Shown piece after piece: positions 2,555-64,000 of a stretch of 64,000 bases of DNA (within the stretch, counting starts at the first letter, position 1; the number at the start of each line of letters is the position of its first letter). A model generated the notes under the pieces. It was not told the DNA's origin. It searched no databases and saw only the letters and a program-made list of their open reading frames with translations. Origin of the DNA: Leptospiraceae bacterium (GTDB lineage: Bacteria > Spirochaetota > Leptospiria > Leptospirales > Leptospiraceae). The stretch is from assembly GCA_024233835.1 (NCBI GenBank), contig JACKPC010000001.1:1477442-1541441 (forward strand), read 5' to 3'. The position numbers were made by a program, and so were the translations under genes.

Positions 2555-3589
2555 TTACTTGTTAGAGAGAAATTCTCGGATAGCCTGTAAACTTTCTTCC
2601 GGCTTTTCTCCTATCATAGTATGACCGGCGCCGGGAATGGTCTTCGTTTCCGGATTCTTAAAAAACTTACTATGTTTTTCCTGTGTTTCTTTCCCTATAA
2701 TTGTATTACATTCACTATTCAAAAAGAGAGTTTTTCCATTATAATTTTCTAATCCTTTGGTAAGATCTATCTTGATATTACCTCTGTCATCCATAGCAGC
2801 ACGAAACATGGTTCGGTTCGCTACAAATCCTCCTCTCCAATAGGGAAGACTGGCTGTTTTTAAATCTTTGTTGCAATAATAGGACTCAATCGGGTTTCCC
2901 TCTATATCGGGATTGGATAAGAGAAGCGACATGGCGAAGTCCTGAGGGGCATGATCATCAGGGCCATCTACATGAAGAGATTGGAACATGATTTTTGTTG
3001 TGTGTTTCACAACCGACCAGGTAAAAGCAGGAACCATATAATTGGTCTTCTCTAAGAATTCTTTGCCTGTTTCCGGGTTCAAAAAGCCCGGTTCTGCCAG
3101 TACGACTTTTTCTACCTTATCGGGAAATTTTGCTATATAAGCAGTAGCTAACATAGCTCCCCAGGAATGTCCTATGAGATAGACTTTTTTTATAGGAGAA
3201 TAGATCTTTATAATCTCATCGAGGTCTTTTATGTATTCTTCCAGAGTATGAGCTTTAGCATCAAGTCGTTTGGAAAGTCCCGTTCCTCTCTGGTCATAAA
3301 AAACCACATAGTATTTATCTGAAAGAGCCTGTAGGGGTAAGAGGTAGCGGTAGTCATTTCCGGGGCCTCCGTGCAGGACGATAAGTGTTTTGTTTTTAGG
3401 ATTCCCGAAAGCTTCCGCGTGCAAAACTACACCGTTAACGGTAATTTTAGGAAGGTTCGGATCCTGAACTACGGTACTTAATACTTTGTAGTCTCCTGAA
3501 AAATATAAGTAAAGGCTTATGAAAATAAGTGTCATCCCCAGGATAACACCCGCAATGGCTATAGCAAAAAGTTTCAGTATACGTTTCAT
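2555..3589 (-). CDS. Membrane-anchored alpha/beta hydrolase (proline iminopeptidase-like)
   Basis: N-terminal TM helix, HGGPG oxyanion motif, nucleophile elbow GHSWG. Confidence 0.75.
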   Translation of the reverse strand: MKRILKLFAIAIAGVILGMTLIFISLYLYFSGDYKVLSTVVQDPNLPKITVNGVVLHAEAFGNPKNKTLIVLHGGPGNDYRYLLPLQALSDKYYVVFYDQRGTGLSKRLDAKAHTLEEYIKDLDEIIKIYSPIKKVYLIGHSWGAMLATAYIAKFPDKVEKVVLAEPGFLNPETGKEFLEKTNYMVPAFTWSVVKHTTKIMFQSLHVDGPDDHAPQDFAMSLLLSNPDIEGNPIESYYCNKDLKTASLPYWRGGFVANRTMFRAAMDDRGNIKIDLTKGLENYNGKTLFLNSECNTIIGKETQEKHSKFFKNPETKTIPGAGHTMIGEKPEESLQAIREFLSNK

Positions 3590-3660
3590 GGAAAATACCC
3601 CTTTAAATTCAAGCTTCAGGCCAGATTAGCGTATAGGGAATTGAGGGTCAAATGGAAAAC

Positions 3661-5037
3661 TTAAGAAATTAGTTTCAGTTTTTCAGCCCAGCTTCTTACA
3701 TTACCGGCTCCTATACTTAAAAATATATCTCCTTTTTGTAATTCCTTTTGCAGTATTTGTATATCTTCATCTATCTTTCCGCTGAGAAGGCTCGTTTTTT
3801 CAGTTGGTAAGCGCTGTGCAATAAGTCCTGTATGGATGCCGGCTATGGCCTCTTCACCTGCTGAGTAAATAGGGAGAAGAAAAATTTTATCAGCCTTAAT
3901 TAGAGATTCTGCAAATTCTCGGTATAATTCTTTAGTCCGGGTATAACGATGAGGTTGGAACAGGACAATGGAACGAGAAGAATACTCTTTTTTTAATATA
4001 TTTAAAGAATTTAATACAGCACTGATTTCTGTCGGATGATGGCCGTAATCATCATAGAGTCTTACACCTTTCCAATCCCCTAAAAATTCCAGTCTGCGCT
4101 CAACTCCTTCATACAAGGAAAGGGCCTTTAAGCTGGTTTTTGTTTCTATCCCGATTTGCTTACAGGCAAGATAAGCTAAGAAAGCGTTATGTAAATAGTG
4201 TCTTCCTGGAAAGGGACAGCTTAATTCGTAAGAATTTTCATCCTCTTTAAATATAAGTTTATTTGTATATATGGAAATCCTATAATGCGGAATTCCTTCT
4301 ATTTGCTTATCATCCTCGGAGAAACTCAGGATATTTTTTTTTAGCCCGGTTTTTATTAACATATTCCTCACACCGGGATCGGAAAGGTTGACTATGGAGA
4401 GGCTATCTCCTTTATTCTCGATAAATCTGGCAAAAGCTTCGGTAAGCTTTTCTTCGGTACCATAATAGTCGAGATGGTCTCTATCAATATTACTGAGTAG
4501 TTTTATCCTGGGAGTATAGATTGAAAAGCTTCCATCCGATTCATCGGCTTCAAAAACAGCCCAATCACTATTACCGGAGCGTCCTCCCCGGTTTTGTAAA
4601 AATGGTAGATTCCCACCTACCATAATCGATATATCTTTTTTAGCATGAAGGAGGATTCGAGAAACCATAGCCGTTGTGCTGGTTTTCCCGTGGGAGCCGG
4701 CTACTGCTACGCATTTCTTTTCTTGGAATAAGTTCTGTAGTATCTCAGAACGGTGAAAGGAAGGAATTCCTCTTTCTTCTAATTTTCTATAAACCGGATG
4801 GTTCTTGCGATTTATAGCGCTGGAGTAGATAAAGTAATCCTGTTCGGAGAGAATCTTATCGGAAGGTTCCGGGCTAATTTCTGCTCCTCTCTTCTGTAAA
4901 TCCCTTACTACTTTCGAATCGTTCTTGTCGTAGCCAAAAACCCTGATTCCTCTATCTAAAAGGATGTGGGCGATAGACGACATACCGGATCCACCGATAC
5001 CGAGTAGGAATGCATTCTTATTTTCTGGAAGTTTCAT
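3661..5037 (-). CDS. murC: UDP-N-acetylmuramate--L-alanine ligase
   Basis: GIGGSGMS N-terminal motif and the Mur ligase P-loop GSHGKTSTT; sits in the dcw cluster. Confidence 0.9.
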   Translation of the reverse strand: MKLPENKNAFLLGIGGSGMSSIAHILLDRGIRVFGYDKNDSKVVRDLQKRGAEISPEPSDKILSEQDYFIYSSAINRKNHPVYRKLEERGIPSFHRSEILQNLFQEKKCVAVAGSHGKTSTTAMVSRILLHAKKDISIMVGGNLPFLQNRGGRSGNSDWAVFEADESDGSFSIYTPRIKLLSNIDRDHLDYYGTEEKLTEAFARFIENKGDSLSIVNLSDPGVRNMLIKTGLKKNILSFSEDDKQIEGIPHYRISIYTNKLIFKEDENSYELSCPFPGRHYLHNAFLAYLACKQIGIETKTSLKALSLYEGVERRLEFLGDWKGVRLYDDYGHHPTEISAVLNSLNILKKEYSSRSIVLFQPHRYTRTKELYREFAESLIKADKIFLLPIYSAGEEAIAGIHTGLIAQRLPTEKTSLLSGKIDEDIQILQKELQKGDIFLSIGAGNVRSWAEKLKLIS

Positions 5038-6115: not shown

Positions 6116-7263
6116 ACCTGTAAATTCTCTTTTCGGGTTATATTACATAAAATCCCCAGGGAGAGCATGACCGTGAGCAGGGAAGAACCTCCGTAGCTAA
6201 CAAAAGGAAGGCTGATACCCGTAATCGGAAAAACACCGGTAACTACAAACAGGTTAATCAGTATTTGAACTCCAATCATGGATATAATCCCGACTCCCAG
6301 TAAAAATCCGAAGGGTTCATTGACTCTTCGGATGAGCATAAAACTTCTGAGGATTAAAAAGATAAATAGAAAAAATAAAAATAAAAAACCTATATATCCG
6401 AAGTCTTCAACATAAGTGGCCATAACAAAGTCGGTGTGGCTATATGTCAGGTAACGATGAGAATATCCTGTAGACACATTGGTTCCGAACCATCCTCCAT
6501 CATTAAAGGCTCGGAAGGAAGATACAAGCTGGTGTCCTTCATCGTAGCGGTATTTATAGGGGTCTAACCATACTTCGATTCTCTTCTTTCTATAACCCAC
6601 TTTATATATCAGGATCATCAAAAGTGGAATCGATGAGATAAATCCAAAAAGAAGCTTTCGAATGGGAAAGCCATCAATAAAAATCAGAGCAATAATCATG
6701 GAGATGATTTCGAGGGTGGTCCCGAAAGCCGGCTCAATAATGATAAGGGCAATTACTGAAAGGACTAAGAAACCGGGTAAGATATAATTTCTATAGGTTC
6801 TGTGGACTGTCTCATTCATCTTGACGAGAAAGGCTGCGAGATAGGTAACGATTGCAATTTTAGCAAATTCAGAAGGTTGGAGCTGGAAAGAACCTATTCC
6901 TATCCAGCGATGAAAGCTTCTTCCGTAATAAGTATGAACCGATTTTCCGAGACCCGGAATAAAAACGAGAACTAAGAGAAAAAGAGAAAGAAGAATGAGT
7001 TGGCTGGCGTAGCGTTTATAGTAACGATAATCTATATTAGCAATCAGTATAAAACCAAAAATAGAAAGTACTGTCCAGGCAGCCTGTTTTTTGGCAAAGT
7101 ACATGGGGTCCTGAAACTCTCTGCTTGCGGTTATCGAGGAGCCCGAAAACATAATGCCCAGACCCAAAAAAAGCAGGATGAAAATTGAATATAGAAGGGG
7201 TAAGTCTACTTCATACTTACCCGGACTGAGAAAAGACGATAAGCGAGAATTGGTTTTATTCAT
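6112..7263 (-). CDS. ftsW: SEDS-family lipid II flippase/polymerase FtsW
   Basis: Multi-pass membrane protein of FtsW/RodA length and pattern, placed between mraY and murG. Confidence 0.85.
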
Positions 7264-7265
7264 TC

Positions 7266-8381
7266 TTACTGGATCTTTAATGAGGAAAGGGATATGAGTG
7301 CAAGAATAATTGCCACTATCCAGAAACGGATAACAATTTTTGTTTCTTTCATTCCTCCCAGTTCAAAATGGTGGTGCAGGGGTGCCATTCGGAAGATTCG
7401 TTTTCCCCGGAGTTTAAAGGAGCCTACCTGTAAAATTACACTCAGGGCTTCTGCTACAAAAACTCCTCCTAAAACGACCAGAAGAAGTTCTTTTTTTAAC
7501 AGGATGGAAATCATACCGAGGGTAGCACCTAAAAAGAGGGAGCCTGTATCTCCCATGAAAACTTCTGCCGGGTGGGAATTGAACCACAGGAAGCCGATTA
7601 ATGAACCTGTAAGGGCAGAAATGAAAACTGAGTATTCATGGGCTTCTGGAAGGTAAGGAATATTCAGGTAATTAGCAGCTACTGGGGTTCCGGATACATA
7701 GGCGATAATTCCGAAAGTGATGCTGGAGATGGCTACTGTGCCGGTTGCCAGTCCATCCAGACCGTCTGTAAGATTGACTGCATGAGTAGTCCCGATAATA
7801 ACACAGATAGAAAAGGGAATGGCAAAGAGTATTTCCAGGGACAGGATCGGGCCTTTGAGAAAAGGTAGAAAAAGGTCTGTCAGGGCAAAGGTAATTCCCT
7901 TACTGGAATTTGAGGGTTCCCCGGTGACTAAAAAAAACAGCAGGCAGAAACTTAAAGCAAGGAGAATGCTGATTCCGAATTTGACTCTCGCTTTCATACC
8001 TCCTTTTATTTTCAGAATCGCCTTTTCGTAATCGTCTCGAAAGCCAAGGGCACTGAAAAGAATACTGAAAACAGAAATTAAAAGCACGTTGAGATTCTTC
8101 AGGTTTCCCCAGAGCAGGGTAGATACAATTAGCCCTGAAATAATCATCAGACCGCCCATAGTAGGAGTGCCGGATTTTACCTCATGGGAAGCCGGACCAT
8201 CGGGGCGGATACTTTCTTTAAAGCGAATCTTATACAGGTAGGCGATAATTCGTTTTCCTAAAAAGAAAGTTAGAAACATGGAGGTGAGTCCCGCCATGAG
8301 GGCTCTGAAGGTAACATAGCCAAAAATTCGAAAGAAGCCCGGGTCGGGGCCGAGTAGATCATGGAAAAAGTATAAGAACAT
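7266..8381 (-). CDS. mraY: Phospho-N-acetylmuramoyl-pentapeptide transferase
   Basis: Polytopic membrane protein; motifs [13 protein letters not shown] and [12 protein letters not shown] are typical of MraY. Confidence 0.9.
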
Positions 8382-8395
8382 CTGTAATTATATTT

Positions 8396-9910
8396 TTATC
8401 TCCTGCTTTCTTCGTCCAGTTCAAAAGCGTTCTGTATTTCAATTGTATCACTAAAATTTTCTTTTGAGGAGCCAATGATTTGATAGTTTTCATGCCCCTT
8501 ACCGGCTACCAGTAAGAAGCCTTCTTCCGGAAGAACCTGTATTCCTTTTAAAATAGCCTGCCTGCGGTTACTCTGACGAATATAGGAAGTAAAACCCTTA
8601 GGAAATCCGGCTTCAATTTCATCGATGATTTTTTCCGGATCTTCGGTTCTCGGGTTGTCGGAAGTCAGAATGACCATATCCGAGTTTTCGGCAGCAATTT
8701 TTCCCATGATAGGTCTCTTGGTATGGTCTCTATCTCCACCACAACCAAAAAGGCAGATAAGGCGACTATGAGGAATTTCTTTCAGGCTCTTCAATACATT
8801 CAGAAGAGCGTCAGGGGTATGGGCATAATCTACTACCGCAAGCCGGTTTCGTCTTCGATTATAAACGATCTGGAAACGTCCATCTACAGGGTGCAGGTTT
8901 TTAATCGAATCCTGGATCAGCTCTTCTTCCAGACCTAAATGCAGGGCCGCGATATAGGACATGGACACGTTTAGGAAATTGAAGTTTCCGAGAAGGTTTG
9001 TTTGTAAGTCGATTGGGCTGCCTTTTTTGGGTTTCAGGAAAAATTCTGTTCCATTCAGACTCAGACTTTTTACTTCTCCTTCGTAGTCCTTTCCTTTTCC
9101 GAAAGCAAGGGTTTTGAGAGGGAGTTTTTCTTTTTTTATTTTTGCCAGGATGTCCCTTCCTCCCTTTGTATCTGTAGAAATTAGGGCGAGTCTTTCCTCA
9201 TGATAGGAATTGGAGAGAAGTTTAAAAAGCTTATATTTACTATTCAGGTAATCTTCCATGTTTTCATGGAAATCAAGGTGATCGCGGGTTAAATTGGTAA
9301 AAATGGCTGCTTTCAGGTGTATACCGTTCATCCGATTCAGTTTTAAACCATGAGAACTGGCTTCCATGAAGACGTATTTCACACCTGCATCGAGCATGTT
9401 TTTTAAAATGCTCTGGAGTTCTGAAGGTCCGGGAGTGGTGTAACCAGTGTGTAAAACCCGGTTTCCATAAATTACCTGTATGGTACCGATGATTCCGTAT
9501 TCTAAGCCGGCCCTTGAAAAGAGGTCGGAAAGAATATAGGTCATCGAGGTTTTACCGTTAGTTCCGGTGATGGCTACTATCTGGAGCTGTTGGGAAGGAT
9601 GCCCTTTTAAACAGGAAGCAAGAGGGCCATGGAAGTAGGCCGGATCGGACTCCGACACCAGAACGGTTGTGAAGTCTTTCGGTACTGGTAAAGAAAGGTT
9701 TTTTTTGCTGATTAAAACCGCTTTAGCACCCCGTTTAATTGCATCTTCGAGATAGCTCCGGGTTTTTTCTCCGAAAGAGTCATAGACACAAAAAATATCG
9801 TTCTTACCGGTTTCTCGTGAATCGGAGTATATATATTGAATATCGGGATCGGATTGAGTCCTGAGAATCGAAATTTCAGGATAATCACTTAGTAATTCTT
9901 CTAATTTCAC
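8396..9910 (-). CDS. murE: UDP-N-acetylmuramoyl-L-alanyl-D-glutamate--2,6-diaminopimelate ligase
   Basis: Mur ligase P-loop GTNGKTS, N-terminal DSR motif, and the C-terminal DNPR motif that marks meso-DAP-adding MurE. Confidence 0.85.
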   Translation of the reverse strand: MKLEELLSDYPEISILRTQSDPDIQYIYSDSRETGKNDIFCVYDSFGEKTRSYLEDAIKRGAKAVLISKKNLSLPVPKDFTTVLVSESDPAYFHGPLASCLKGHPSQQLQIVAITGTNGKTSMTYILSDLFSRAGLEYGIIGTIQVIYGNRVLHTGYTTPGPSELQSILKNMLDAGVKYVFMEASSHGLKLNRMNGIHLKAAIFTNLTRDHLDFHENMEDYLNSKYKLFKLLSNSYHEERLALISTDTKGGRDILAKIKKEKLPLKTLAFGKGKDYEGEVKSLSLNGTEFFLKPKKGSPIDLQTNLLGNFNFLNVSMSYIAALHLGLEEELIQDSIKNLHPVDGRFQIVYNRRRNRLAVVDYAHTPDALLNVLKSLKEIPHSRLICLFGCGGDRDHTKRPIMGKIAAENSDMVILTSDNPRTEDPEKIIDEIEAGFPKGFTSYIRQSNRRQAILKGIQVLPEEGFLLVAGKGHENYQIIGSSKENFSDTIEIQNAFELDEESRR

Positions 9911-57547: not shown

Positions 57548-59494
57548 CTAAGAAACCTTTATTTTAAAAACCTTGAGTCTTTCTTTATCCCAGTTTCTCT
57601 CATAAACGAGTTCCTCTAACTTTAGATTTCTTGTATATAAAAATTCTTCTATATTCTTTTTTACAGTCTCTGTAAAAACTATCTCTCCGGCTCCGCAAAG
57701 ACTCTGGATCTTCGAACAAAGATTCACGGTATTTCCAAAAAAATCAATATTACTATTTAAGTTTACCGAAAGACAGGGTCCACTATGAAGACTGATGCGA
57801 ATACGTAAACCCAGGTCGTTTTTTTCATGAAAGCGTTTCTGCATTTCAAAAGCCGCCCGCATAGCCAATTCAGGCGAAGGAAATACAAGCATAGCTGCAT
57901 CTCCAATCGTTTTGGTCAGAGCTCCCTGGTGCTTAGTAACTTCTTCGTATATCCAGACAAAATGTTGTTTTACCCGAGAAAAAGCCTGTCCGTCTCCAAG
58001 CTCGGAATATAATTTCGTTGAACCCACCAGATCGGTAAAGAGAATGGTTTGAACCCCCACATCGAGACTTACTCCAATTTGTATTGCTTCTTCCGAAAAT
58101 ATATCGTGAAAATCCTGTAATAAAAATAAATCTTTAGGTCTTAAAGCAAAAGTATCAGGTTCAGTTTTTTCTAATATTAGAACGTTATCACTATCTGAAT
58201 GATTCCATAAACCCAAGTTTTCTTTTTGAAAAATAACAAACTCTCTTTTACTCATCAACTCTTCGAGGGTCAATTCTCGAAGTTTAGAATCTGCATCTTC
58301 TTTAACCTGCATATAATTGTATTCTTTTCTTGTATTTGTACGCATCCTATAGAGTCCGGGTAAAAAATCACAGGAAATTCTAAATTTCTCATTTGCAGTA
58401 AAAGCTTTCTGTAAAATAATATGAGATTTTTTTGAGGGTTCTGCACTACAATAAAAACGTTTTGCTACTTTACGAATCGAAGGATGGATATGAAAGGTTA
58501 TTTCCAAGATGTCCATTCCACCTGTCCGGAAATCAATCTCACAAACTTCACAGCTTGCATTTGGAGGCACTTCTCCAAGGTGTTTCAATTCTTCCCGAAC
58601 CCCTCTGCAATGCGGACAAACGACATCCCAGCTCATCTGTAATACTCCCAGTCGGGTAGCCTGTAAGAAAAGTTTTAAAACTTCCCTTTCCTCTTCTTGC
58701 CACCTTAGGGCTAATTCTTTTACACGCAGACGATAAAGCTCCTCTTCCGTTCCATATTCAAGATGCTCTAAAAAGTTTTGAACGAATACTTCGTTTGGAA
58801 ATAATTTCATAAGTGATACTTTTGCATTTTCTAATATTCTTTTTCCTCCTTCTTCTAATTGAACCTTTTCTGTTTTTATCTTAATCTGAGATTTCACTTG
58901 CAAACTATTTGCGATGTTTTTAAATACAACTCTGTATTTTTTTTCCATGCGGGGCATCGCCATTCTTAAAAGTAATTTACCCCTGAGATTTGCAGGCAGC
59001 CAGGCAAAATAAAAATACAAACGCAGCGAATTATTTCCCAATTCTTGCAGATAACCCACGACTCGAACATACTTTGCAAAACCTTTTGTATACTTCCTTG
59101 AGTTTTCAATAAAACGCTTATATTCCCACTGCCAGGGAACTTCTTCCCATTCTAATTCAATCCCGACGTTTTTTGTTTTTCCATAAAGCTTTCCACCTTT
59201 TTCTTTAAATTGCATCTCGGGAAGCTCTAAAAGCTTATTCGTTTTAGATGTATCAATTATTTCCGGCCATAGTTTTTCGGCGGAACAGTTTAATTCCAGA
59301 TGCCAGAAATAATCCAGCCGGGAAGGTGTATCTAAAATAGAAGGATTGGGAAACAGTTTTAAAAATTCCTGCAAAGAAAGAATAGTCATCATAAATATAC
59401 AGGTATCCGTATTTACTCTAAATGCAATATTTTTTTGCAAACACTCTCCTATATTATCATTGTTGATTCTAATCGATTGTAAAACCTTTGACAA
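57548..59494 (-). CDS. Class III adenylate/guanylate cyclase with a large N-terminal domain containing a Zn-ribbon-like CxxC...CxxC
   Basis: C-terminal CHD catalytic domain (FTDLVGSTKL...TIGDAAMLVF); N-terminal CPHC...CEVC. Confidence 0.8.
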   Translation of the reverse strand: MSKVLQSIRINNDNIGECLQKNIAFRVNTDTCIFMMTILSLQEFLKLFPNPSILDTPSRLDYFWHLELNCSAEKLWPEIIDTSKTNKLLELPEMQFKEKGGKLYGKTKNVGIELEWEEVPWQWEYKRFIENSRKYTKGFAKYVRVVGYLQELGNNSLRLYFYFAWLPANLRGKLLLRMAMPRMEKKYRVVFKNIANSLQVKSQIKIKTEKVQLEEGGKRILENAKVSLMKLFPNEVFVQNFLEHLEYGTEEELYRLRVKELALRWQEEEREVLKLFLQATRLGVLQMSWDVVCPHCRGVREELKHLGEVPPNASCEVCEIDFRTGGMDILEITFHIHPSIRKVAKRFYCSAEPSKKSHIILQKAFTANEKFRISCDFLPGLYRMRTNTRKEYNYMQVKEDADSKLRELTLEELMSKREFVIFQKENLGLWNHSDSDNVLILEKTEPDTFALRPKDLFLLQDFHDIFSEEAIQIGVSLDVGVQTILFTDLVGSTKLYSELGDGQAFSRVKQHFVWIYEEVTKHQGALTKTIGDAAMLVFPSPELAMRAAFEMQKRFHEKNDLGLRIRISLHSGPCLSVNLNSNIDFFGNTVNLCSKIQSLCGAGEIVFTETVKKNIEEFLYTRNLKLEELVYERNWDKERLKVFKIKVS

Positions 59495-59517
59495 AAATTC
59501 AGGACTTAAAAACTATG
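59489..59517 (+). promoter_or_regulatory. Putative sigma70-like promoter TTGACA-N17-AACTAT driving the riboswitch leader
   Basis: Consensus -35 hexamer read directly; the -10 is weak. Confidence 0.3.
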
Positions 59518-59521
59518 GCTA

Positions 59522-59700
59522 TAGTCTTCAGGGAGGAAGTCAGGTGCAATTCCTGCGCTGTCCCGCAACTGTAATGCCCTAGTGGATAAGCCAGATCTTC
59601 CCCTGTATTCGCGCTTCGTGGATTGAGTGTAATACAAACTCACCTGAAAATAGGTGAACGGGGTCCCGAAGATAGATAAATCCGTGGACTTCTTTCATCT
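59522..59700 (+). promoter_or_regulatory. Cobalamin (B12) riboswitch
   Basis: Conserved core GGTGcAAtTCC...CtGtCCCGCaACTGTaAtG plus a B12-box-like AAGCCAGAtCttCCCC; a downstream hairpin CACCTGaaaatAGGTG precedes the RBS of the first gene. Confidence 0.7.
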
Positions 59701-59738
59701 AAAATCTGAAGTTTCACGAAATGGAGACCAACATGAAA

Positions 59739-60881
59739 ACTTTAAAGTTCAGCCTTATGCTTTTTCTAAGTATAGGCATCACCCTTTCCAATTGTAAAAA
59801 CGACGAACAGGATAAAAAAGACAAAGAAACACTCAGTGCTGCTTTCCTTCTTTTACAAAACCAGGCTACGTTCCTTGAAATCAATGGTAAGTTAAGCGAT
59901 ACTTCCGGTACTGCCTTATCCACACACAAACTGGTTTTAAGTACAAATGTTTCTTCTCGGATCGAGAATCCAAGTTTTTCTACACAGGGAACATCTTATA
60001 CAAGCGATACCTCGGGATATTTTAGCATTCAATTATCTGCTGGTTCCTACAAGATACGGGTATATAACTCCTCAGATACAGAAGTAGGCTCTTTCACTCT
60101 AAATGTAAATAGTGCTTCCGATAAACCGAAACCGGAAAATCTGAGTGGTTTAAAAGTGAGCATCATCCGAATTGGCTCTGCTTTCAACAAAGCAAGTGGT
60201 TTTACAGGTCTTAGTGGCTATACCTGGTTAAGTAATTTCGGAGGATTTAACAAGATCACCACGAAAAATTGGGGCTTATCCACTATAGAAGAAATCGATT
60301 CGAATAACAATGTTGTATACATAAAAGATACAACTGAAACTGCTTATGTAGCCGGCTATTCGAGAATTCGCTTTACTTCGGTGGATACCTACGGTAACTT
60401 CCGTTATTGCATCGAGACCTACGGGAAGCAAAGTTTAGAAGAGGCAAAAGCGGTGAATACCAGTTATACCTTTTCTTCCGATACAACAGCTAACTGCGGA
60501 GGCTTTAGCTGGTCGATTATGTCCCTGGCTCCGGAATACATGCAGGTAGATATCAGCATAGCCGGAACCGGAACCGACAACTACGGGCAGGTCTGGAAGT
60601 TACTGGGAGATAAGTATTCCGGAAATGCTATATATGAATTCAATAATAATTCCGGAGTTTTCTATTACCAGAATGCTTACAACGCTACTTATAATCCGAA
60701 TAAATTTGGAAGAATACGCTATACAAAACCTGCAAATAAAGTATTTTATTACTGTATAGAAATTTACGATGGAATAAGTCTTGAGGCTGTTCAATCCGAT
60801 ACAACAAAAGTCTATACCTTCGAAAGTGAAAGTTCCAAAACCTGCGGAGGCTTTACTTGGAGTAAGGTAAGTTTAAACTGA
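59739..60881 (+). CDS. Lipoprotein with an internally duplicated Cys-containing ~50-aa module; first gene of the riboswitch-controlled operon
   Basis: Lipobox LSNC. Duplicated segments (YCIETYGKQSLEEAKAVNTSYTFSSDTTANCGGFSWS and YYCIEIYDGISLEAVQSDTTKVYTFESESSKTCGGFTWS). GGAG RBS 8 nt before the ATG at 59739; the upstream ATG at 59721 is less likely. Confidence 0.7.
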   Translation, partial: TLKFSLMLFLSIGITLSNCKNDEQDKKDKETLSAAFLLLQNQATFLEINGKLSDTSGTALSTHKLVLSTNVSSRIENPSFSTQGTSYTSDTSGYFSIQLSAGSYKIRVYNSSDTEVGSFTLNVNSASDKPKPENLSGLKVSIIRIGSAFNKASGFTGLSGYTWLSNFGGFNKITTKNWGLSTIEEIDSNNNVVYIKDTTETAYVAGYSRIRFTSVDTYGNFRYCIETYGKQSLEEAKAVNTSYTFSSDTTANCGGFSWSIMSLAPEYMQVDISIAGTGTDNYGQVWKLLGDKYSGNAIYEFNNNSGVFYYQNAYNATYNPNKFGRIRYTKPANKVFYYCIEIYDGISLEAVQSDTTKVYTFESESSKTCGGFTWSKVSLN

Positions 60882-60890
60882 GGATAGAAC

Positions 60891-61769
60891 ATGAGAGTTT
60901 TGTTTATCATTTTTTTTATCAGTATTTGCAGTTTTTGTAATACAAAAAAAACTACTTCAGAGAAACAAAGTCTACTGATTCCTATATTACAAAATGCGAA
61001 TCTTTCCAATCCGAACTCGCAGGTTAACAATGATAATTCGGAATGTCCTCCTGCTCGCTTACCGGAAAATATATTCCTGGCTGATACGGTTGTATCAGCT
61101 CCGGCAGCAAGAGATGCAGATTTTCGCAGGTCATCTAAAGCTGTAAACGGTATTTGCGGAGGAGGAGAAACCTCCGGTTCTACGGACGTCTTCACCCTTG
61201 ACACAAGCGGAGAGGGGGCCAGTATCATCCTTGCCTGGAACAATAAAAAAGTTTTAAATACAAAAGGAACAGACTTCATTGTTTTTGAAAATCCTTTTAA
61301 ATACGGGGATGAAAACACCTATTTTATGGAACCCTTGCTGGTTGAAGTTAGCCGCGATATGATTCACTGGTGTGGGTTTTTACCTGCTTATGCAGGGAAG
61401 GATGGAAACCAGGAGAGCTATAATACCGATAGGTCAGCCTGGACGAATTTTGCCGGAATTCAACCTGTGTTCTATAACATGGGTACAAATAATCTTTCAT
61501 TAGAAGATTTATTCATCCCTTCAAAGTCCGGTGGTGATCATTTTGATCTGGATGATTTATACTCCGGAAATAATTCGGCTATAGGGCAAGATTGCACTCT
61601 GCTTGAAGTAAAAACCATACAGGAAGAAGGTTTTCTCTATATTCGCTTAACGTCTGCATCAGCTCGAATCAACCCCCTTACACAAAAATATTTTCCTTCT
61701 GACCAGAGTGCTTTTGGAACAGGTCCGGATATAGATGGAGTTATTGCCAGAACCCTGGGAACTCGCTAA
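60891..61769 (+). CDS. Secreted protein or lipoprotein, hypothetical
   Basis: N-terminal hydrophobic signal with Cys (ICSFCN), Gly/Asn-rich body; second gene of the operon. Confidence 0.55.
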   Translation: MRVLFIIFFISICSFCNTKKTTSEKQSLLIPILQNANLSNPNSQVNNDNSECPPARLPENIFLADTVVSAPAARDADFRRSSKAVNGICGGGETSGSTDVFTLDTSGEGASIILAWNNKKVLNTKGTDFIVFENPFKYGDENTYFMEPLLVEVSRDMIHWCGFLPAYAGKDGNQESYNTDRSAWTNFAGIQPVFYNMGTNNLSLEDLFIPSKSGGDHFDLDDLYSGNNSAIGQDCTLLEVKTIQEEGFLYIRLTSASARINPLTQKYFPSDQSAFGTGPDIDGVIARTLGTR

Positions 61770-62901
61770 CTTGAAATTTCTGTTCCTTCTCTGCCTCTTT
61801 TTCTTTTCCTGTAAAGAAAAAGCAGTCTCTGAGGATAAAAGTATATTCTATAACCCTAATTCTTTGATATCTCATTCCAAAAGGTTGCAAATTCAAAAAT
61901 ATGAGGACTATACGATTCTTCGAGTAAAACCTTTTCAAAATGAAGATCTTACTGAAACCTATATTTTAGTAGATAAGGATAAACCCAATCCTCCGGACTC
62001 CATTCCTCGCACACATATAATCAGGACTCCCGTCAAAAGGGTAATTTGTTTATCAGCTACACATGCCGGGATCATTAGTTTTTTAGGAGAAGAAGAAACT
62101 CTTGTCGGTCTTTCCGATCCGGAAATCATTTATGATTTAAAAATTAAAGACCATATTCAAAACACAAGGATACCGAAAGTAGGTTTTCCAAACAATCTTA
62201 ATATAGAGTTAATCCTTTCTTTAAAGCCTGATATGCTTATGGTTTCCGGATTTTCTGTAGCAGAAAGTCGTGTATATGATGTATTAAGAGAGTCTAACAT
62301 ACCGGTTATTCAAAATGCAGACTGGCTGGAAGATACTCCTCTTGGTAGAGCCGAATGGATTAAATTTGTTTCTCATTTTTATCAAAAATACCACATGGCT
62401 TCTGTTCAATTTGAATATATTAAAGATCAATATAATTTACTGGTCCAAAAAGTATCCTCTGTAACTGATAAACCCGGAGTTATACACTCTCTTCCTTATA
62501 AGGGAGTCTGGTATATGCCGGGAGGCAATAGCTATATGGCAAAATTTTATAAAGATGCAGGAGTTAATTATTACTGGTCTTTTACAAAAGAAAGAGGAAG
62601 TATTCCAATGGATTTTGAAACCGTCTATCCGAGAGGTCTTAGTTCCGAATTTTGGTTGGCTCCGGGTATCGTAAAAACTCGTACAGAGCTTGCACAAATA
62701 GATAAACGTTTTCAGGATTTCCTTTCCTATAAAACCGGAAGAATTTACAATTATAACAAACTTACAAACCAAAATGGAGGAAATGCATACTGGGAAAGAG
62801 GTATGATAAACCCTCATGAAATTTTATCTGATCTTATTAAAATATTTCATCCCGACTTACTTCCGGATCATCAACTGATATATTTCGATAAAGTAAAATG
62901 A
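61735..62901 (+). CDS. ABC-transporter periplasmic binding protein, Peripla_BP_2 (BtuF/FecB-like)
   Basis: Characteristic RVICLSATHAGIISFLGEEETLVGLSD segment; overlaps neighbours on both sides. Confidence 0.75.
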   Translation: MELLPEPWELANLKFLFLLCLFFFSCKEKAVSEDKSIFYNPNSLISHSKRLQIQKYEDYTILRVKPFQNEDLTETYILVDKDKPNPPDSIPRTHIIRTPVKRVICLSATHAGIISFLGEEETLVGLSDPEIIYDLKIKDHIQNTRIPKVGFPNNLNIELILSLKPDMLMVSGFSVAESRVYDVLRESNIPVIQNADWLEDTPLGRAEWIKFVSHFYQKYHMASVQFEYIKDQYNLLVQKVSSVTDKPGVIHSLPYKGVWYMPGGNSYMAKFYKDAGVNYYWSFTKERGSIPMDFETVYPRGLSSEFWLAPGIVKTRTELAQIDKRFQDFLSYKTGRIYNYNKLTNQNGGNAYWERGMINPHEILSDLIKIFHPDLLPDHQLIYFDKVK

Positions 62902-63935
62902 TTATAGATTTGCAACATAGAAGCTGGTTACTTATTTTTATTTTTTTAAGTATCTTTTTGTATTTAGCAGCAGTTATATGGGGTTCTGTTTACATATCTC
63001 CTTCTGAAATTTTAAATATTCTCCTGGGTAAATCTACAGACATTTCGAATACAGGAATTATTTTTAAAGTTCGAATACCGGAAGCAACCACAGCAGCTTT
63101 TGCAGGGGCCGGTCTTTCTGTTGCCGGTCTTCTCATGCAAACTCTGTTTCGAAACCCTCTGGCCGGTCCCTCGATTCTCGGCATTAGCTCCGGAGCCAGT
63201 CTCGGTGTAGCCTTTTTTTTATTATATATGGGTGGAAGTATACAAAATCTCAGTAAAGGTTTTTTAACTTTAAATAGAGGTGTCCCCCTTGTTTTCTTTG
63301 CTACAGCCGGCGCCATAGGTATATCTTTAGTACTTTTAGCATTTTCCAGCATAGTCAAAGATAATGTTGTATTACTCATTATAGGTATTCTAATTTCGAA
63401 TCTAACCCTATCCCTTGTGAGTATCTGGCAATCTTTCAGTAATCCGGAGGCCATTCAGGATTATCTGATGTGGACATTTGGTAGTCTGGGTTCCTGCCGG
63501 GAATTAAGTCTATTCATACTCTGTGCTATCATCATATTTGGACTATTTTTAAGTTTCTTAATTTTTAAACCCTTAAATTCTCTACTTTTGGGTGAAGACT
63601 ATTCTGCGAGCCTCGGAGTAAATATAGCTTTTCTGCGAATAGGCATACTCTTTATAACCGCTCTCTTGACCGGAAGCATCACCGCATTTTGCGGCCCCAT
63701 TGCTTTTGTTGGAATGATTTCTCCGCATATAGTAAAAACACTGTTTTCCAGTTCGGATCATAAACTGGTAATTCCGGGTAGTATTTTTTGTGGTGCTGCT
63801 ATATTGTTACTCTGCGATATAGCTTCCAGGCTTCCAGGTTCTTATATGGTTCTTCCCATCAACTCAGTTACGGCACTTTTCTCTGCTCCTATCTTAATTT
63901 TTGTGCTCCTGAAAAAAAAGAGGTTTCGTATATGA
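62898..63935 (+). CDS. btuC: FecCD-family ABC permease (BtuC-like)
   Basis: ~10-TM FecCD topology, conserved Gly-rich TM motifs, 345 aa. Confidence 0.85.
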   Translation: MIIDLQHRSWLLIFIFLSIFLYLAAVIWGSVYISPSEILNILLGKSTDISNTGIIFKVRIPEATTAAFAGAGLSVAGLLMQTLFRNPLAGPSILGISSGASLGVAFFLLYMGGSIQNLSKGFLTLNRGVPLVFFATAGAIGISLVLLAFSSIVKDNVVLLIIGILISNLTLSLVSIWQSFSNPEAIQDYLMWTFGSLGSCRELSLFILCAIIIFGLFLSFLIFKPLNSLLLGEDYSASLGVNIAFLRIGILFITALLTGSITAFCGPIAFVGMISPHIVKTLFSSSDHKLVIPGSIFCGAAILLLCDIASRLPGSYMVLPINSVTALFSAPILIFVLLKKKRFRI

Positions 63936-64000
63936 GTATATGTTATACAAAGAAAATATTAAAAACCATCTCTTTAAATATTGGCTATAAACCTTCCAGA
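63933..64000 (+). CDS. Probable ABC ATPase (BtuD/FecE-like), 5' fragment truncated by the window edge
   Basis: ATG overlaps the permease stop; ...KKILKTISLNI... resembles the ATPase N-terminal beta-strand. Only 23 codons are visible. Confidence 0.3.

Follow-up and report, generated by a model that had tools for sequence, protein, structure and literature searches.

A truncated cobalamin riboswitch heads a probable corrinoid-scavenging operon with a predicted BtuH-like lipoprotein in a Leptospiraceae bacterium

The btu loci of Bacteroides combine BtuB-BtuG, the accessory proteins BtuH and BtuJ, and the BtuFCD importer. BtuH, encoded in these riboswitch-regulated loci, binds cobalamin (vitamin B12) with picomolar affinity (PMC8941943; PMC10404256), and its fold engages both the corrin ring and the nucleotide loop (PMC8941943). 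BtuH has been described as lacking structural homologues, and a 2026 review confines its homologues to Bacteroidota plus three Firmicutes (PMC8941943; PMC13616437). In Leptospira, the 'cob II' cluster opens with two 'putative lipoproteins', LA_4202 and LA_4203, which all 20 species possess and which, in the words of Fouts et al. (2016; PMC4758666), 'may or may not participate'. Here we describe an operon at the end of a 64,000-nucleotide stretch (the window) of contig JACKPC010000001.1 from a Leptospiraceae bacterium, in which a truncated cobalamin riboswitch precedes five genes: g1 and g2, lipoproteins related to the products of the first two cob II genes, and g3 to g5, a BtuFCD-type importer. 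The operon is likely to serve corrinoid (B12) scavenging and import under repression by the riboswitch.

A sequence-only reading of the locus had proposed a B12 riboswitch core with a B12 box behind a TTGACA promoter box, heading a tight operon with a BtuF/BtuC-like importer and a probable ATPase, and these proposals hold. The Rfam family RF00174 matches 59484-59620 (+) with 34.1 bits against a gathering score of 31.5 (E 5.6e-6), the sole Rfam match in the whole window. The core reads GGTGCAATTCC...CCCGCAACTGTAA and is followed by the B12 box AAGCCAGATCTTCCCC; the promoter box is in place (Table 1). The five genes share the strand of the riboswitch; neighbours are no more than 9 nucleotides apart or have overlapping stop and start codons. 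The window end cuts g5, which is an ATP-binding cassette (ABC) ATPase in a second copy of the locus on a public contig (L081) with an identical g4; there the complete gene spans 7841-8605 (254 residues, PF00005) and closes the operon, with a convergent chemoreceptor gene beyond. The BtuFCD-type importer set (PF01497, PF01032, PF00005) is complete in one operon. Equivalog-level matches to BtuC, BtuF or BtuD were not reached by g4, g3 or g5: the top NCBIfam model for g4 is BtuC (172 bits, cutoff 334), g5 matches corrinoid, FecE and heme ATPases below every equivalog cutoff, and g3 has no BtuF-level NCBIfam match. The B12 specificity of the importer rests on the riboswitch. The 18 kb upstream of the operon hold no B12-related genes.

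The association of riboswitch and lipoprotein genes extends well beyond this genome. A scan of one genome per species yielded 317 g2 relatives, and 80 loci were fetched and compared, spanning all four Leptospira clades, Leptonema, Turneriella, metagenome-assembled genomes (MAGs) of other Leptospirales, Myxococcota, Planctomycetota and a few others. In 53 loci a motif search picks up the riboswitch core on the same strand, some 1 kb upstream; all told, a cobalamin riboswitch lies upstream on the same strand in 67 of the 80. Canonical RF00174 elements (52-115 bits) occupy this position in 22 non-Leptospirales loci, and R1, a covariance model trained on 38 orthologous leaders from Leptospirales, recognises the truncated form ahead of the g2 homologue in 45 loci of this order; eight of these were held out of model building and score 52-87 bits. 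Across all scans, just two cobalamin-clan matches fall on the opposite strand (L017, L047); the one in L017 precedes a g1-like gene and DUF6580, and that in L047 heads a divergent unit. L017 carries two divergent variant riboswitches, at 3779-3923 (-) and 4596-4740 (+), the other of which controls a TonB receptor gene, then one for an unknown protein of about 390 residues, and then the g2 homologue.

A g1-type gene, recognized by a hidden Markov model (HMM) of its module, stands immediately 5' of the g2 homologue in 53 of the 80 loci, and this cassette is joined to varied partners. The BtuFCD layout of the window and its L081 copy is shared only by the closest relative, L001. In pathogenic Leptospira the cassette is followed by DUF6580-CobT-CobS(-CobC); in other Leptospirales it is joined to DUF4430, a transcobalamin-like domain, and DUF6580; some loci have a TonB-dependent receptor with similarity to B12 receptors, then an uncharacterised protein of about 400 residues. 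In saprophytic Leptospira nothing further follows g1-g2, and the riboswitch there therefore controls these two genes alone. A pair of genes that retains a B12 riboswitch across phyla, while its partners come from at least four different B12 modules, would be very difficult to account for if its products did not act on corrinoids. An early tblastn survey of synteny, in which g2 homologues mostly did not lie beside BtuF/BtuC, seemed contrary, and was overturned once riboswitches and neighbours had been annotated.

The unnamed neighbours deserve a brief record. In the five loci checked (L011, 10867-12102; L012; L017; L056; L060), the gene after the TonB receptor under riboswitch control encodes a protein of about 390-410 residues, which has no Pfam or NCBIfam match and is, by position, a candidate BtuG analogue. 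DUF4430 and the membrane protein DUF6580 occur together downstream in L003 (8747-9857), L009, L015, L031, L040, L044, L050 and L060, and possibly form an uncharacterised corrinoid binder/transporter pair.

The sequence-only reading had seen no recognisable family in either lipoprotein, which is correct for Pfam and wrong for NCBIfam, and had taken g2 for a secreted Gly/Asn-rich protein. The g2 product is more than that: it is a full member of the LIC_13355 family of lipoproteins (NF033170; 285.7 bits, cutoff 120), aligned over residues 6-289 to profile positions 2-272 of 273, and has no Pfam match. It consists of a signal peptide, Cys16, a disordered linker of about 40 residues (17-55) and a globular domain (55-292), with the invariant motifs DFxVFENPF, GGDxFDL and PDIDG. 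A model built with 104 relatives has a mean predicted local distance difference test (pLDDT) score of 88.5, above 90 for residues 55-292. When searched with Foldseek against the PDB, its top two matches are 8blw_B, which is BtuG1 of B. thetaiotaomicron, a protein with a C-terminal BtuH domain (PMC10404256), and 7biz_B, the B12-binding lipoprotein BtuH2, with 13-14% identity in the structural alignment. The globular domain is thus predicted to adopt a BtuH-like fold. Sequence methods see no relation: the 104-relative profile retrieves no PDB chain beyond two noise matches, and g2 is for this reason called BtuH-like in fold and context rather than a proven homologue. It is probably a remote counterpart of BtuH in new phyla.

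Like BtuH2 (BT_1956) and the H-domain of BtuG1 (BT_1490) of Bacteroides thetaiotaomicron, the g2 family is encoded in B12 transport loci under riboswitch control. The g2 domain, with about 235 versus about 270 residues, is the shorter, and is preceded by the disordered linker alone, whereas BtuH proteins carry PKD/Ig spacers; an Ig-like spacer sits in g1, and genes of the g1 type are not reported from Bacteroides loci. One possible lead comes from the comparison. BtuH2 contacts the phosphate and base of B12 through Asn399 and Phe401, and the invariant ENPF motif of the g2 family has the same N-x-F spacing; the invariant acidic motifs would fit calcium sites. The distant g2 superfamily comprises more than 1000 clusters whose members bear lipoprotein, type IX secretion system (T9SS), PEP-CTERM or dockerin signals, which fit an extracytoplasmic location. 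A sequence bridge from these distant proteins to Bacteroides BtuH is neither shown nor excluded by the best 120 of the more than 1000 clusters, all of myxobacterial type. Among distant homologues, L071, a Planctomycetota MAG, has tandem cobalamin riboswitches upstream of the gene (3109-3306 and 3504-3687; 96 and 66 bits), and the Thermoplasmatota archaea L076 and L078 encode distant g2-like domains with no detectable riboswitch, next to ABC-transporter-like genes and a DUF4430-cluster protein.

The g1 product was expected to contain two copies of a cysteine-bearing module. Two copies are there, 35% identical (E 8e-15), and the unit is about 110 residues long rather than about 50, with a further domain in front. 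Behind the lipobox LSNC (Cys codon 59793-59795) lie a transthyretin-like (Ig-like) domain (about 59865-60182) and two LIC13354-type modules (about 60198-60536 and 60537-60878), lipocalin-like barrels that each hold a conserved cysteine pair (YC.E ... GCGGF.W). NF047669, the LIC13354 family of exoproteins, matches g1 in two stretches with 47.6 bits, below its cutoff of 130, and the architecture of two modules plus an Ig-like domain differs from that of LIC13354. With the module HMM, LIC13354-type genes are recognised in 55 sources, of which the window is one. An exhaustive HMMER search, needed because a word-indexed search had found just five g1 relatives, gathers 275 representatives with one, two or three modules. 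Pfam finds only the weak transthyretin-like match in g1 and no family over the module in the 62 members scanned; profiles of both the g1 and g2 families return noise when run against the sequences of solved structures. The LIC13354-type barrel has no solved B12-binding relative. Of the earlier proposal that both lipoproteins form a new class of binder, g2 drops out as BtuH-like, and the g1 module alone is still a candidate. The accompanying suspicion that the pair are corrinoid-related surface proteins is supported, since neither outcome that the reading had named as refuting it occurred: the leader exceeds the Rfam gathering score, and homologues are found overwhelmingly in B12 contexts, beside CobT/CobS, DUF4430, DUF6580, TonB receptors or BtuFCD.

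Set against the Bacteroides btu loci, the window operon shares the plan of a riboswitch-controlled unit with extra extracytoplasmic lipoproteins and a BtuFCD-type importer, and some relatives' operons add the TonB receptor followed by the uncharacterised protein of about 400 residues. The window differs in having no BtuB, no BtuG beta-propeller and no DUF4465 (BtuJ) match, and the lipocalin-like barrel module of g1 has no counterpart among described Btu proteins. Identification of g1 or g2 with the seven-bladed BtuG propellers was rejected, neither model being a propeller, as was identification with BtuJ, since neither has a DUF4465 or other Pfam match. Closer to home, NCBIfam names and locus order indicate that LA_4202/LA_4203 are LIC13354/LIC13355; the corresponding L. 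interrogans open reading frames (ORFs) pass both NCBIfam cutoffs. The cob II cluster has the same two families in the same order behind the same truncated riboswitch, then cobT, cobS and cobC; it differs in that the window has btuFCD in place of DUF6580-cobTSC, and LIC13354 has one module where window g1 has two plus the Ig-like domain.

On these grounds, a route for corrinoid uptake may be proposed. At low B12 the leader would permit expression of the five genes. The g2 lipoprotein would be an extracytoplasmic catcher of corrinoids, most likely exposed at the cell surface, and g1, with its Ig-like spacer and two lipocalin-like barrels, would either capture them as well or hand them over. A TonB-dependent receptor, presumably encoded elsewhere in the genome (in the same operon in some relatives), would carry the cargo across the outer membrane, from where it would pass to the BtuF-like g3 and be imported by BtuCD (g4, g5); plentiful B12 would bind the aptamer and shut the operon off. 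A broader suggestion, which is somewhat more doubtful than not, is that riboswitch-g1-g2 represents a widespread two-protein extracellular corrinoid capture system outside Bacteroidota, in Leptospirales, Myxococcota, Planctomycetota and others, with the LIC13354-type barrel a new class of corrinoid- or corrinoid-fragment-binding domain that would act as a secreted or tethered 'cobalophore' handing its cargo to the BtuH-like partner.

Several points weigh against assigning the operon to B12 scavenging. B12 binding by members of the g1 and g2 families is what we infer. No outer-membrane transporter is encoded in the window operon, and 13 of the 80 loci have no detectable riboswitch, although one of these is truncated upstream. 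The window leader exceeds the Rfam threshold by just 2.6 bits, and the copies of L. interrogans, L. idonii, Turneriella, Leptonema and L001 fall below the gathering score. Finally, recombinant LIC_13355 has been reported as an adhesin that binds laminin and plasminogen, with B12 unmentioned (PMC11891782).

The alternative that survives best, itself unlikely, is that g1 and g2 handle a part or precursor of B12, such as cobinamide, alpha-ribazole or the lower-ligand base, for salvage or remodelling. The cassettes of pathogenic and intermediate Leptospira are fused with the genes for nucleotide-loop assembly, CobT, CobS and CobC, plus DUF6580, in the 'cob II' cluster (PMC4758666), and the g1 barrels, lipocalin-like and only about 110 residues long, would accommodate a small ligand better. 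Against this, numerous loci, the window and L001 among them, tie the cassette to importers of whole corrinoids, namely BtuFCD, TonB receptors and DUF4430, and the BtuH fold accommodates corrin ring and nucleotide loop together (PMC8941943). The two possibilities are compatible, as g2 could bind corrinoids and g1 a fragment.

It is considerably less probable that g1 and g2 are adhesins for host or matrix components, as published for LIC_13355, with the riboswitch link a by-product of a shared operon. The cassette is kept in saprophytic Leptospira, environmental Leptospirales MAGs and free-living Myxococcota; the saprophyte riboswitch governs g1 and g2 alone, and the association spans several unrelated operon layouts. 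The top fold matches of g2 are B12 binders, not lectins. In favour of scavenging, LIC_13355 has been detected in the outer-membrane fraction (PMC11891782), and LIC13354 and LIC13355 are up about 3.7-fold together in dialysis-membrane chambers implanted in rats (PMC3953431), an induction that would fit derepression under host B12 scarcity without proving it. Corrinoid scavenging is thus the preferred function, and the published Leptospira adhesin LIC_13355 is probably a B12 scavenger. If so, the 'adhesin' and the LIC13354 exoprotein, conserved surface or secreted proteins of Leptospira both considered antigens, would gain a testable function as B12 scavengers; BtuH-type capture would extend from gut Bacteroidota to spirochaetes and myxobacteria through a link beyond the reach of sequence searches; and the uncharacterised barrel domain could prove a new corrinoid binder.

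The truncated riboswitch itself is well conserved. It precedes LIC13354/LIC13355 in all Leptospira clades (R1 scores of 110-132 bits); the L. interrogans copy (L037, 7022-7160) reaches 130 R1 bits with no Rfam match, L010 likewise has an R1 match and no Rfam match, and saprophytic Leptospira have copies in L021, L030, L043 and L046, that of L021 attaining 36.6 Rfam bits. Most Leptospirales copies score below the RF00174 gathering score, which explains why the published counts stand at two cobalamin riboswitches for infectious Leptospira and zero for L. biflexa (PMC3493377; PMC3953431). The truncated copies revise these counts, with a bearing on the idea that B12 autotrophy separates pathogens from saprophytes. 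If the present assignment is right, all Leptospira, saprophytes included, sense B12 through an overlooked riboswitch.

Over the 38 leaders, which cover all Leptospira clades and other Leptospirales, 38 columns are invariant. In an alignment of 63 sequences, fitted to the model and hence biased toward the structure, 93% of cells are paired, compared with 42-53% when partners are slid; 235 cells show double changes, compared with 60 +/- 7.5 in shuffles, and 19 of the 26 pairs have such changes. P4, P6 and the downstream hairpin all carry compensatory changes, and a MAFFT alignment gives the same P4 covariation independently. RNAalifold on the MAFFT alignment recovers P3, P4 and P5 only; P6 and the 3' hairpin emerged only with a structure set by hand and realignment to the model. 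P6 is short and variable, and is absent in L002, L006 and L014. That the leader is a decayed, non-functional riboswitch, with the operon constitutive or otherwise controlled, is highly improbable: the marginal Rfam score, the missing P1/P2 and P6 extension, the several sub-threshold orthologues and the absence of a terminator speak for decay, whereas the invariant columns, the compensatory changes and the scores of the held-out loci speak against it. Cobalamin riboswitches without the P6 extension exist naturally, such as env8 of class II.

In the window, the aptamer comprises a P3 closing helix of 7 base pairs (GGGAGGA / UCUUCCC), P4, a P5 whose L5 loop CUGUCCCGCAAC is rich in C, a P6 that is only a short hairpin, and the B12 box AAGCCAGAUCUUCCCC. 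R1 places the element at 59524-59654 with 104.5 bits, the window sequence being a training member. Two features account for the marginal Rfam score: the 5' 40 nucleotides of the match belong to the promoter and are not part of the RNA, and the aptamer has no P6 extension. Neither P1/P2 nor the P6 extension of the consensus is found, 62 model positions being replaced by 6 nucleotides; at its 5' end, where it overlaps the promoter, the Rfam alignment forms no pairs. The Leptospirales element starts a few nucleotides after the promoter and therefore lacks P1/P2. As in RF00174 and class II riboswitches such as env8, it has a four-way-junction core, a B12 box and a C-rich L5, and its downstream hairpin could form the regulatory kissing loop; it differs in lacking P1/P2 and in a P6 of a few base pairs or none. 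Transcription probably starts at about 59523. The -35 box lies at a fixed distance from the aptamer across 33 orthologous leaders; a consensus promoter scan called no promoter on the + strand, because the -10 is weak.

Helices 6 and 7 of the 3' hairpin show compensatory changes, and the hairpin contains invariant columns in alignment A5; its loop is a candidate L5 partner (P13-like). The platform hairpin beyond it is kept in other Leptospirales leaders as the GGGGCCCC...CGGGGC type. In the window, CUUCUUUC (59689-59696) is complementary to the ribosome-binding region of g1, GAAAUGGAG (59718-59726), so that the 3' arm of the platform hairpin could pair there instead. There is no intrinsic terminator on the + strand after the aptamer, which favours translational control; the switch probably acts on initiation of g1 translation. 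The minimum-free-energy fold of the whole leader gave no information on switching.

Table 1. Leader elements and genes of the riboswitch-led operon, numbered from the first letter of the window.
Feature	Position	Strand	Description
Promoter	59488-59516	+	-35 TTGACA at 59488-59493, 17-nucleotide spacer, weak -10 AACTAT at 59511-59516
Aptamer core of truncated cobalamin riboswitch	59524-59605	+	RF00174, model R1 and covariation
Two-part hairpin 3' of aptamer	59604-59654	+	loop UUCGUGGAUUG with invariant C-G..G
Expression platform	59655-59732	+	conserved hairpin GGGGUCC 59660-59666 / GGACUUC 59686-59692
g1	59733-60881	+	lipoprotein, 382 residues; ORF also opens at ATG 59721
g2	60891-61769	+	LIC_13355 family lipoprotein, 292 residues
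g3	61771-62901	+	BtuF-like substrate-binding lipoprotein; Peripla_BP_2, PF01497, E 2.4e-16
g4	62898-63935	+	BtuC-like permease; FecCD, PF01032, E 1.3e-72
g5	63932-64000	+	BtuD-like ABC ATPase; gene cut by window end

The ATG chosen for g1 is served by GGAGA at 59723-59727, and a Leptospiraceae MAG encodes a hypothetical protein with 100% identity to g1. The g3 ORF opens at 61735, and the in-frame TTG at 61771 begins a typical lipoprotein signal peptide, MKFLFLLCLFFFSC; judged from this, the TTG is the likely true start, and the 35-nucleotide overlap of g2 and g3 (61735-61770) is probably an artefact of ORF extension. The start of g4 overlaps the g3 stop (ATGA).

Some further observations concern the surroundings. 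L004, a Leptospirales MAG, has a Flavo-1 small RNA match at 6326-6432 (-), with 46 bits against a gathering score of 42, outside the taxon that its name implies, and a Byssovorax contig (L073) carries a cyclic di-AMP riboswitch at 6338-6486 (+). The divergent neighbour of the operon, at 57548-59494 (-) in the window, encodes 648 residues with DUF5939 and an adenylate/guanylate cyclase domain; a cyclase holds the same position in L001 with 45% identity, and paralogues of the family are present in 23 of the fetched loci.

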